Part shown: piece by piece, positions 58,570 through 59,767 of the stretch
Layout: every line of letters starts with the position of its first letter
Numbering within the stretch: position 1 is the stretch's first letter
Origin: an uncultured Pseudomonadales bacterium
GTDB lineage: Bacteria > Patescibacteriota > Microgenomatia > UBA1400 > PJMF01
Direction: 5' to 3'
Length of the DNA stretch: 64,000 nucleotides
NCBI GenBank assembly: GCA_964433225.1
Contig: CAYSQA010000002.1
Span: 8,642-72,641 of the forward strand
Position numbers and translations under genes: made by a program
Notes under the pieces: model-generated
What the model was told of the DNA's origin: nothing
Seen by the model: only the letters and a program-made list of their open reading frames with translations
Database searches by the model: none

Positions 58570-59391
58570 TTGCTGTTACAATTAGTCTTAACTATGAAAA
58601 CTAAAAAATCTGTGGTTGTGGTTATTTTCTTGATTTTATTAAGTGCTGGTTTGTTAGGTCGTTTTTATTTTAAAGATTCTAGTAATGGTTCAGCAATGAA
58701 GACGGAACAGGCTACTTCTAATCTTGGTGAAAAAAATTATTTGTTAGCTGATTATCCAGTGGAAACAGTGCCATTGTATAAATTAAAAAAAGTAAGTGCT
58801 TCTAAGTTTTTTGTTAACGATGATCCTAATAACTTTGCTAGTTATTTTGGCCAACCAGTTAATTATTACAATGTTGTTTTTGAAACAGAGGCTAACCCAA
58901 CAGAACTGTTAGCTTATTATCGTTCGCTAATGAGTGAAGTTAATGAAACTGCAACCTCAACAGAAACAATCGAGGGGCAAATCGGTAAGTATAAAGTTTC
59001 TGCCTCACATTATGGTAATAACCCTCAAAACTATGCTTATCTTCAGGTTTATTTGCCAGTAACTGAGTACCAAAAAACTAACCGTTATTTTCAAGATTAT
59101 CCAGAACTTGTTGCTTTAGATGAATCGTTGGTTGAGTATGAAAGTAGTTTTGGTTTATTGAACCAAAAAGGTGGTGAAGTAGAGTATTGGCAATATTTTT
59201 CCTTGCCAGCAGAAACTAAAGAGAGAGCTAACTTGATTAAAAGTTATCAAGAGAAATATCAGCTTCAAACAAATTATAGTTTTGATGAAAAAACTGGTCT
59301 AATGAAATGGCAAGATGGAGACTATTCTATTAATCTTACTTTTTCTACTGATCACGGTCGAGTTTATTTAATGATTCGCAGGCCAATTTAA
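58570..59391 (+). CDS. Hypothetical signal-anchored secreted protein
   Basis: N-terminal TM/signal (VVVVIFLILLSAGLLG) and a soluble domain of unknown family. Confidence 0.5.
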   Translation: MLLQLVLTMKTKKSVVVVIFLILLSAGLLGRFYFKDSSNGSAMKTEQATSNLGEKNYLLADYPVETVPLYKLKKVSASKFFVNDDPNNFASYFGQPVNYYNVVFETEANPTELLAYYRSLMSEVNETATSTETIEGQIGKYKVSASHYGNNPQNYAYLQVYLPVTEYQKTNRYFQDYPELVALDESLVEYESSFGLLNQKGGEVEYWQYFSLPAETKERANLIKSYQEKYQLQTNYSFDEKTGLMKWQDGDYSINLTFSTDHGRVYLMIRRPI

Positions 59392-59650
59392 TGGCTTTGC
59401 CATTAATAATCCCGTCAGCCAATTTTTTATAAGCAGAGTTTAAAATTCTGGCAAAAGTTGGTTGAGAAATTTTCATTTCTTTAGCAGCTTTATTTTGATT
59501 GAGTTGATTAACATCATGTAATTTTAAGGCCTCTATTTCATCTGTCTCCAAAATCACTTCTTCAATTTCACTTAATGGAACACCTCTTGGTTTGAAGTAA
59601 ATAACATTTGGATCAAATCTCAATCTACGAAGCTTTTTAGGTCTTGGCAT
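59345..59650 (-). CDS. DUF134 (UPF0251) family predicted DNA-binding protein
   Basis: MPRPKKLRRLRF...LSEIEEVILETDEIEALKLHDVNQLNQNKAAKEMKISQPTFARILNSAYKKLADGIINGKAI matches the DUF134 sigma-region-4-like pattern. Confidence 0.7.
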   Translation of the reverse strand: MPRPKKLRRLRFDPNVIYFKPRGVPLSEIEEVILETDEIEALKLHDVNQLNQNKAAKEMKISQPTFARILNSAYKKLADGIINGKAIKLACESLNKLDRDQ

Positions 59651-59659
59651 AAAAATCTA

Positions 59660-59767
59660 TTTAAAAATTATTTTTTGCTTTTTTTAGGTGAGTTTATTTT
59701 TGGTTTACAGTTTCCCATTTTACGACCAGTCCTAGGTCCTTTACCATTTGGGCCGGTACCATCTCTA
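59660..59767 (-). CDS. 35-aa micro-protein MPNRDGTGPNGKGPRTGRKMGNCKPKINSPKKSKK, DUF5320-like; not in the ORF track
   Basis: ATG at 59767-59765 on the minus strand and TAA at 59662-59660. The MP-x-DGTGP-x-G-x-GP-x-TGR-x-x-G-x-C motif matches small proteins that accompany DUF134 genes; the family name is from memory. It sits 9 nt upstream of the DUF134 gene. Confidence 0.55.

Follow-up and report, generated by a model that had tools for sequence, protein, structure and literature searches.

A predicted two-gene operon encoding a motif-only DUF5320 micro-protein and DUF134, with a conserved promoter palindrome, in Patescibacteria

Introduction

In Enterococcus hirae, CopZ, a small metallochaperone consisting of a folded HMA domain with a CxxC motif, delivers copper to CopY, the repressor of the operon. 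Sigma factors and their anti-sigma factors (SigD4-RsdA, 3vep; SigE region 4, 2h27; RsiW, 5wuq) offer another case of a small co-encoded modulator, and some anti-sigma factors sense through cysteine and zinc; RsiW is a zinc-binding one. Here we analyse two genes that may follow a similar logic, a 35-codon open reading frame (ORF), hereafter the micro-ORF, and a gene for a DUF134 protein. They lie next to each other in a stretch of 64,000 nucleotides (the window) from contig CAYSQA010000002.1 of GenBank assembly GCA_964433225.1 (positions 8,642 to 72,641 of the forward strand), which comes from an uncultured bacterium of the GTDB lineage Patescibacteriota, Microgenomatia.

The pair resembles several described systems without being identical to any. 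The analogy with CopY-CopZ would lie in a repressor that is modulated by a small protein, the two being encoded together with metal transporters in a single operon, although there is no relation of sequence or fold, and the window peptide has one cysteine and is predicted to be disordered. The core of DUF134 can be superimposed on sigma-70 region 4 (target-normalised TM-score of about 0.7), but DUF134 cannot be a sigma factor because it lacks sigma region 2, and its putative site is a palindrome at -10/+1, not a -35 element. Its closest solved sequence relative is the DNA-binding domain of Bacillus subtilis DeoR (SorC family; PDB 7bhy, 8r7y); DeoR, however, has a large sugar-phosphate effector domain, is a tetramer and uses a 39-bp bipartite operator, whereas DUF134 has about 90 residues and no effector domain. 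ArsR/SmtB repressors have the same form of operator (TGAAxA-nn-TxTTCA), in the same position over the -10 element and the start, and the same link to metal transport, but DUF134 is no winged-helix ArsR protein and its own helix co-varies with the site. Within its family (PF02001, UPF0251, COG1342) the window DUF134 is a full-length member that differs in a lineage-specific C-terminal tail. The peptide shares the N-terminal motif MPxxDGTGPxGxGPxTGRGxGxC with PF17253 (DUF5320) but lacks about three quarters of that model, namely the Gly/Arg-rich middle and the C-terminal coiled coil, and has a lysine-rich tail instead.

Sequence comparison indicates that the pair and its promoter palindrome are conserved across dozens of species, often beside metal-transport genes. 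We propose a mini-DUF5320/DUF134 operon in which DUF134 would be an autorepressor acting on the palindrome and the peptide its partner in trans, with a metal or thiol signal, an explanation which, taken whole, we believe slightly more than we doubt. Both proteins belong to known Pfam families of unknown function, and the finding is correct and modestly novel; what is new here is the conserved promoter with its palindromic candidate operator and the co-variation of specificity, with further value in natural gene fusions.

Results

A short DUF5320 gene

The micro-ORF (Table 1) translates as MPNRDGTGPNGKGPRTGRKMGNCKPKINSPKKSKK. The initial annotation had its strand and translation exactly, as the ORF list confirms, and had given the name DUF5320 correctly; in the Pfam search that it had proposed, PF17253 matches the peptide at 39.4 bits (E = 1.5e-9), above the gathering cut-off of 27. 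It had placed the ORF 8 nt away, at 59767-59660 instead of 59775-59668, and had put the gap to the DUF134 gene, whose position (59345-59650) it gave correctly, at 9 nt, where 17 nt separate the micro-ORF from the start of DUF134 at 59650. The match covers profile positions 1-26 of 99, less than the full-length domain, as the protein stops at residue 35; an 86-aa relative spans positions 1-94 (motif, Gly/Arg-rich middle and C-terminal coiled coil). The peptide contains the N-terminal motif MPxxDGTGPxGxGPxTGRxxGxC only, 23 Gly/Pro-rich residues closed by a near-invariant cysteine (GxGxC; C23 in the window), followed by the lysine-rich tail, and its net charge is about +10 over 35 residues. Judged by this match, it is a motif-only short form of a known Pfam family.

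Several lines of evidence indicate a translated gene under purifying selection. A Shine-Dalgarno-like element precedes the ATG, and about 40 related loci have an equivalent GGAGG/AAGGA element in the corresponding position. Nucleotide entropy over 58 homologous ORFs is 0.67 at the first codon position, 0.56 at the second and 1.39 at the third, and the conserved Gly, Pro and Cys are encoded by all their synonymous codons. The ratio of synonymous to non-synonymous differences is 7:1 between the window and its nearest relative, locus L081, and 9:1 over the motif between the window and L084; the length of 35 residues is preserved in the window, in L081-L083 and in an NCBI genome. The initial annotation had called the ORF unannotated, which holds for the ORF track from which it worked but not for public records: the exact peptide is already in a public protein collection, a gene caller also predicted the ORF on contig L082, and a one-residue variant of 35 aa is NCBI MFZ5438021.1 ('DUF5320 domain-containing protein'), which adjoins MFZ5438022.1 (DUF134).

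An exhaustive search of cluster representatives with the peptide found 126, many of 29-60 aa and about 20 of at most 45 aa; a 40-aa relative from L084, used as query, found only 7 matches. The lengths of DUF5320 ORFs in our loci are bimodal, 14 of 63 measuring 39-68 aa and ending in basic or RG-rich tails, the others measuring 72-108 aa and having the coiled coil. Because short forms recur in both sets, the 35-aa form is a recurrent short form and not a one-off.

Association with DUF134

The survey comprised 80 GTDB species-representative loci that encode a DUF134 relative. A regular expression for the motif found DUF5320 ORFs in 41 of the 80, an under-count, and a hidden Markov model built from these raised the number to 66. 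In these 66 loci the ORF lies on the strand of DUF134 and nearly always directly 5' of it, which bears out the repeated association that the initial annotation had stated and on whose conservation in other genomes it had staked its case. Most of the 14 remaining loci can be explained by short flanks (L035, L052, L056), masking (L072), a variant motif (L058), a small ORF that has only a zinc ribbon (L004) or membership of the SRATF clade described below (L062, L065, L077, L080). DUF5320 precedes DUF134 at distances of 1-20 nt even where no transporter follows, as in the window. Other genes stand between the two in L033, L043, L050 and L059, and some operons have several DUF5320 paralogues (L067, L040). 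Between the normal DUF5320 gene and DUF134 of L040 lies a gene for a 94-aa protein with two tandem DGTGP...GxC motifs and a hydrophobic, by eye signal-peptide-like N-terminus.

The motif is also fused in frame to DUF134, at locus L075 and in four non-redundant natural fusions from a database search (P0121, P0127, P0129, P0136). In all four, 21-24 motif residues are joined straight to RPR near the DUF134 N-terminus, and Pfam detects both domains in P0121. Such fusions constitute Rosetta-stone evidence that the motif works with DUF134. Those without the motif cysteine have one in DUF134, a few residues past the junction (RPRNPRC or RPRLCR).

From its arrangement, the window locus is a two-gene operon with the micro-ORF as first cistron; the co-transcription suggested earlier is supported by a single near-consensus promoter, the 17-nt gap, the conserved order and the four fusions.

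A palindrome over the promoter

The DNA 5' of the first cistron was aligned in about 40 loci. In nearly all of them TTGACA-N17-TATAAT runs straight into the palindrome ATGAATATATATTCAT, in flanks that are otherwise unrelated and next to DUF134 proteins that are 55-72% identical. The window promoter, TTGACA-17-TATTAT, has 11 of 12 consensus matches in the promoter scan and is a near-consensus sigma-70 promoter; the palindrome core, TGAATA-nn-TATTCA in the consensus across loci, reads TGAGTA-TA-TATTCA at 59798-59811. The site at 59793-59816 is the sole match in the 64-kb window to the 16-mer consensus at three or fewer mismatches. About 60 of the 80 loci have a 16-mer palindrome with at most 2 mismatches to ATGAATATATATTCAT, always just 5' of the first cistron and abutting the -10 element. 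At one mismatch or fewer, the core is present in 56 of the 60 loci with an adjacent DUF5320 ORF (both in 56 loci, discordant in 4 and 4, neither in 16). It stays at the operon start in L033, L043, L050 and L059 despite the intervening genes, and it is retained in L084, whose divergent neighbours are different genes and not ArsR. A palindromic candidate operator that overlaps the operon's own promoter and is conserved with the gene is the arrangement of an autoregulated repressor.

Because the -10 hexamer forms the outer end of the left arm, transcription should start near the centre of the palindrome, which is therefore expected to cover both the -10 element and the start. A reading as an RNA hairpin of the 5' untranslated region was rejected, because the left arm, lying 5' of the expected start, would be absent from the transcript; the position of the -10 element within that arm thus favours a DNA operator. 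No Rfam family was found in the region, and the palindrome sequence was not found as a described operator in the papers searched.

The 116-nt intergenic region, in which the initial annotation had seen several palindromes, holds two inverted repeats. The second has 20-nt arms (80% complementary) around an 8-nt spacer and shares the 12-mer ATATTCATAATA with the palindrome of the DUF134 operon. Within it lie two degenerate core copies, at 59867-59880 and 59887-59900, each with 2 mismatches. Across the window such 2-mismatch matches are individually at chance level (8 found, 7.6 expected), and three of the eight lie in or at the edge of the intergenic region. The second repeat may be the operator of the ArsR-YHS gene or a weak DUF134 site.

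Table 1. Coordinates of the features in the window and in related loci.
Feature	Position	Strand	Basis or remark
Micro-ORF (mini-DUF5320), 35 codons + stop, ATG at 59775	59668..59775	(-)	ORF list, Pfam, codon-level selection
DUF134/UPF0251 gene, 101 aa, second cistron	59345..59650	(-)	Pfam PF02001, 81.9 bits
-35 hexamer TTGACA	59834..59839	(-)	Promoter scan, 17-nt spacer to TATTAT
-10 hexamer TATTAT	59811..59816	(-)	Promoter scan; outer end of palindrome's left arm
Palindrome TATTATGAGTAT/ATATTCATAATA, putative DUF134 operator	59793..59816		Inverted repeat 12+12 nt, 92% complementary
Shine-Dalgarno-like AGGAAAGGA	59782..59790	(-)	6 nt 5' of micro-ORF ATG; read from sequence
Second inverted repeat	59860-59879 and 59888-59907		Spans start codon of divergent ArsR-YHS gene
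ArsR-type helix-turn-helix + YHS regulator	59892-60374	(+)	Pfam
CopA-type P-type ATPase	60367-62583	(+)	Pfam
DsbD_2 + cupredoxin protein	62597-63712	(+)	Pfam
HMA protein	63714-63965	(+)	Pfam
273-aa ORF convergent with DUF134	58570-59391		No Pfam match
403-aa protein, leucine-rich repeats then Ser/Thr kinase domain	56492-57703	(-)	Pfam record of same-length syntenic L081 gene
TGAGCA-TA-TGCTCA sites at operon starts	L062 3976; L065 1767; L077 3964; L080 3962; L067 1815
Zinc-ribbon module	L003 1975-2283; L046 3726-3932; L004 3788-3955; L067 6116-6340
Zinc-ribbon module, further loci	L017 2927-3976; L125 6875-7459; L165 8393-8977		L017: C-terminus of CDF transporter
In-frame fusion of motif to DUF134	L075 3923-4267
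Tandem-motif 94-aa protein	L040 3144-3428
Exact palindrome between 80-aa and 139-aa ORFs	L175 7299; L180 2462; L189 1604

DUF134 as the candidate binder

PF02001 matches the window DUF134 above its gathering threshold, over profile positions 6-90 of 98, whereas the NCBIfam equivalog PRK04217 gives 57.6 bits, under its 115-bit cut-off; many Patescibacteria proteins are 55-80% identical to it, and the names of its homologues point to Patescibacteria as the group to which the window belongs. The fold was judged on an AlphaFold model of the natural fusion P0121, to which the window DUF134 is 59% identical. The model shows a three-helix helix-turn-helix (HTH; helices 60-71, 76-83 and 87-107) with per-residue confidence (pLDDT) of 86-95, and Foldseek matched it to sigma-70 region 4 and the DeoR DNA-binding domain; a PDB profile search with DUF134 gave B. 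subtilis DeoR (E = 0.0055, about 38% identity over 40 residues). On this model DUF134 is a stand-alone HTH protein resembling those two domains. It also has an invariant acidic helix (E31, D37, E38, E40). The lineage-specific C-terminal tail is 10-12 residues long and differs between the window and P0001; because of it, the 3' end of the gene (59345-59391) overlaps a convergent ORF by 47 nt. The 273-aa product of that ORF has, by eye, a signal- or transmembrane-like N-terminus.

The recognition helix of DUF134 reads SQPTF or SQSTF at palindrome loci. Five loci read SRATF or SRPTF instead (L062, L065, L067, L077, L080), and all five, which represent two operon architectures, have TGAGCA-TA-TGCTCA at the operon start in place of TGAATA-nn-TATTCA. 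This palindrome is directly 5' of DUF134 in four of them and 2 kb upstream in L067, where the operon order is MinD, MinD, DUF134, four DUF5320 genes and NifX-like. In the 1.33 Mb of sequence examined, the exact TGAGCA-TA-TGCTCA is found only in four of the SR(A/P)TF loci, L062 having one mismatch; five other one-mismatch matches are scattered away from DUF134 operon starts. A scan of viral contigs found no SRATF-type DUF134. At the SR loci of Ignavibacteriota/Bacteroidota type, DUF5320 is missing upstream, a NifX-like gene lies downstream, and DUF134 ends in a CxxC tail.

The Q/R position aligns with R39 of DeoR, which lies within ISRPT and contacts bases (PMC11229326). The DeoR half-operator ATTGAACAAAATTTCAAT is TGAA-N6-TTCA (PMC11229326), a geometry that the palindrome of DUF134 loci shares. 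A change from Q to R in the helix paired with a change from AT to GC in the half-site is what direct readout predicts, and it supports DUF134 as the binder. From this co-variation, and by analogy with DeoR, we infer that DUF134 binds the palindrome. The conserved promoter palindrome, the helix co-variation and the site of DeoR together make it most likely that DUF134 represses its own operon.

Neighbouring genes and the metal link

Most relatives have a longer operon: of the 78 genes that come next downstream, 63 share the strand, many of them after gaps of less than 30 nt. We clustered the families found within three genes of the pair in the 80 loci. The commonest downstream neighbour is a membrane protein with a thioredoxin/glutaredoxin-like N-terminus (23 loci), followed by YibE_F (18 loci, immediately downstream in 12), ZIP and a small thioredoxin (10 each), Nitro_FeMo-Co (NifX-like) and a polysaccharide-deacetylase-like protein (7 each), CDF (5), and MinD/Fer4 and Fur (4 each). 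A canonical metal gene lies near the pair in 22 loci and any member of the recurring family set in 49. The order in L050 is palindrome, DUF5320, ZIP, DUF134, and in L059 a second copy of the palindrome precedes an EncFtn-like gene. A literature search on YibE returned nothing pertinent. The initial annotation had hinted at a metal-linked regulatory role; this is supported at the level of the family, since the neighbourhoods are enriched for ZIP, CDF, Fur, NifX-like, MinD/Fer4, EncFtn-like and YibE/F proteins. The signal for the module would be a metal.

The divergent copper-efflux operon noted at the outset is present on the plus strand of the window (ArsR-YHS, CopA-type ATPase, DsbD_2-cupredoxin, HMA). 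Its regulator combines an ArsR-type HTH with a C-terminal YHS/TRASH-like metal domain, and the stop of this gene overlaps the CopA start by 8 nt (60367-60374). A candidate promoter for ArsR-YHS, TTGCAT-17-CATAAT, was seen by eye and is absent from the promoter-scan output; with a start at or next to the ATG, the mRNA may be leaderless. Homology of the DsbD_2-cupredoxin protein to the commonest membrane-protein neighbour was considered and dropped, as BLASTP found no similarity. In L084 the divergent-strand neighbour is a Cu-oxidase_2 fragment. Elsewhere in the window, a protein with leucine-rich repeats and a eukaryotic-type Ser/Thr kinase domain, so called from its L081 counterpart, has an architecture unusual for Patescibacteria. 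Readings as a defence system or a phage gene were rejected: PADLOC matched neither the peptide nor DUF134, and PHROGs gave no match for the peptide and only weak generic HTH matches for DUF134.

Cysteine modules

The motif cysteine is present in 61 of 63 DUF5320 ORFs and is the sole cysteine in 30. The two ORFs without it carry a cysteine-rich zinc ribbon instead (CxCPxCG...G(I/V)PC...CPxC). This module consists of CxCPxCG, about 8 residues, G[IV]PC, about 5 residues and CPxC, with only weak zinc-ribbon or HypA-like matches in Pfam, and it occurs in four settings: after the DUF5320 motif, by itself as a small ORF, C-terminally in DUF134 after an RG-rich linker, and on the cytoplasmic end of a CDF metal transporter. 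At some of the exact sites described below, DUF134 follows the palindrome directly, without a DUF5320 gene upstream, and has the ribbon at its C-terminus; the DUF134 proteins of the SRATF clade have a CxxC tail. A cysteine module thus always goes with the HTH, either in the same protein or supplied in trans, and on the simplest view the micro-protein would be the version in trans, a sensor or modulator arm. Searches found no relative of the peptide in the PDB and no similarity to any anti-sigma domain.

Discussion

We suggest that a dimer of DUF134 would bind the 24-bp palindrome and repress its own operon. The micro-protein would be its partner in trans, in effect a detachable N-terminal extension that tunes DNA binding; it would contact DUF134, with the motif cysteine as the sensor, and its positive charge could let it interact with DNA or with the invariant acidic helix. 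The sensed signal would probably be transition-metal or thiol status, and elsewhere the targets of the module would be the genes for metal transport and thiol redox that come next in the same operon.

Several observations weigh against this reading. The window operon has no transporter gene, and the divergent copper operon, whose adjacency is limited to the window lineage (window, L081-L083), has a regulator of its own, which leaves little direct evidence in the window on the targets of the module. The co-variation rests on five loci, perhaps two lineages. With one cysteine, one aspartate and no histidine the peptide would be a poor metal site alone, and the motif cysteine is absent in three of the four fusions. 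In the AlphaFold model of P0121 the motif is disordered (pLDDT 46-57) and does not dock on the HTH core, although the model is uninformative on docking, the motif part of the alignment being covered by 4 sequences only. The neighbouring genes were called by a crude longest-ORF rule, and each cluster was annotated from one representative. Essentially no functional literature was found on DUF5320, DUF134, UPF0251 or COG1342.

Another repressor could also own the palindrome. It might be an ArsR/SmtB-type 12-2-12 operator through which ArsR-YHS, or elsewhere an unlinked ArsR/SmtB protein, represses the operon, DUF134 being a regulated target, and part of the evidence does count in this direction and against our proposal. 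The consensus TGAATA-nn-TATTCA, like the window core TGAGTA-TA-TATTCA, has the published 12-2-12 inverted-repeat form at a promoter, as exemplified by TTGAATA-GT-TGTTCAA at aztA (PMC8790569). An ArsR-family gene diverges from the window operon, as in the ziaR-ziaA layout, and degenerate core copies cluster at its start. A metagenome scan for the exact 18-mer found 121 sites, of which 56 have DUF134 no further than 3.5 kb away and another 8 have only DUF5320. Of the 44 sites with at least 1.5 kb on either side, 21 belong to DUF134/DUF5320 operons, 7 are directly 5' of ArsR/SmtB genes (7 of the 23 well-flanked sites without DUF134) and 2 are 5' of CDF. These ArsR/SmtB genes have alpha3N/alpha5-type motifs; exact copies of TATGAATATATATTCATA stand directly before them in L097, L107, L122, L149, L163, L185 and L193, on contigs that range from 26% to 64% G+C, and before a His-rich CDF gene in L119/L197. 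A subgroup of ArsR/SmtB proteins therefore seems to use the site type of the DUF134 operon. The exact palindrome also lies between a conserved 80-aa ORF and a 139-aa ORF, DsrE-like by eye, on three unrelated metagenome contigs (L175, L180, L189) with no DUF134 nearby. Yet just 3 of the 80 DUF134 loci contain an ArsR-like gene at a distance of up to about 4 kb, L084 keeps the palindrome although its divergent genes are not ArsR, and the closest solved relative of DUF134 itself binds TGAA-N6-TTCA. The half-site becomes TGAGCA exactly where the helix changes from Q to R, which an unlinked regulator does not predict, and DUF134/DUF5320 operons outnumber ArsR-adjacent sites by 21 to 7 among the well-flanked exact matches, although ArsR genes are far commoner in nature. 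We consider DUF134 clearly more likely as the binder than an ArsR/SmtB protein, and regard control by the latter as quite improbable, while it is possible that proteins of both types recognise the same kind of site. We give almost no credence to a third candidate, an ArgR-type repressor bound to an ARG box (TGAAT-wwww-ATTCA): ATGAATATATATTCAT fits what we take to be the E. coli and Bacillus ARG-box consensus, but no arginine-metabolism gene recurs in the neighbourhoods, the site co-varies with the DUF134 helix, and it is a single box and not the usual tandem pair.

A different question is whether the peptide is a partner of DUF134 at all. It might be co-regulated cargo, an independent small basic nucleic-acid binder or a metal/thiol carrier, loosely metallochaperone-like. 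The charge of about +10 in 35 residues would suit this role, as would the RG/RGG-like repeats and coiled coil of long family members and the motif scan that flagged one DUF134 and one DUF5320 protein of a Hadesarchaeon for an RG-type quadruplex-binding motif (PMC7565180). Several paralogues per operon, the tandem-motif protein with its signal-peptide-like N-terminus (L067, L040) and the undocked AlphaFold model point the same way. We nevertheless think it unlikely, because four independent fusions join just the 21-24-residue motif to the DUF134 N-terminus, because the DUF5320-DUF134 order and short gaps are kept without any following transporter, and because DUF134 proteins without an upstream DUF5320 carry cysteine-rich modules in cis. 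Still less would we credit the view, very improbable and already disfavoured, that a full-length DUF5320 gene is decaying and has left the micro-ORF as its remnant, or that the micro-ORF is a functionless, untranslated upstream ORF. The micro-ORF retains just 26 of 99 profile positions, the coiled coil is gone, and on inspection the DUF134 cistron has no Shine-Dalgarno element of its own; but the synonymous excess in both comparisons, the 35-aa length kept in relatives, the wide occurrence of short forms and the natural fusions, which keep precisely this motif and nothing more of DUF5320, all speak against decay.

A broader proposal is more tentative, and we would not bet on it: DUF5320 and DUF134 could constitute an undescribed, widespread two-piece metal or thiol-redox regulator in Patescibacteria and DPANN archaea, in which a minimal repressor resembling sigma region 4 would bind TGAATA-nn-TATTCA, with the sensing cysteine in trans on a micro-protein or, in other clades, as a zinc ribbon in cis, controlling ZIP, CDF, YibE/F, EncFtn-like and thiol-redox genes. 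The genomes of Patescibacteria (the candidate phyla radiation, CPR) and of DPANN archaea are very small, and we know of no experimentally characterised transcription factor from either.

The pair is now experimentally tractable, with a defined promoter and palindromic candidate operator, a predicted specificity residue (Q in SQPTF with TGAATA, R in SRATF with TGAGCA) and a synthesizable 35-residue peptide. If DUF134 is not the binder and the peptide not its modulator, the micro-ORF would remain a small gene of unknown function, unremarkable and annotated correctly. If they are, a regulator family would be named, and with it a regulon in which genes for metal transport and thiol redox predominate, in organisms that are difficult to grow.

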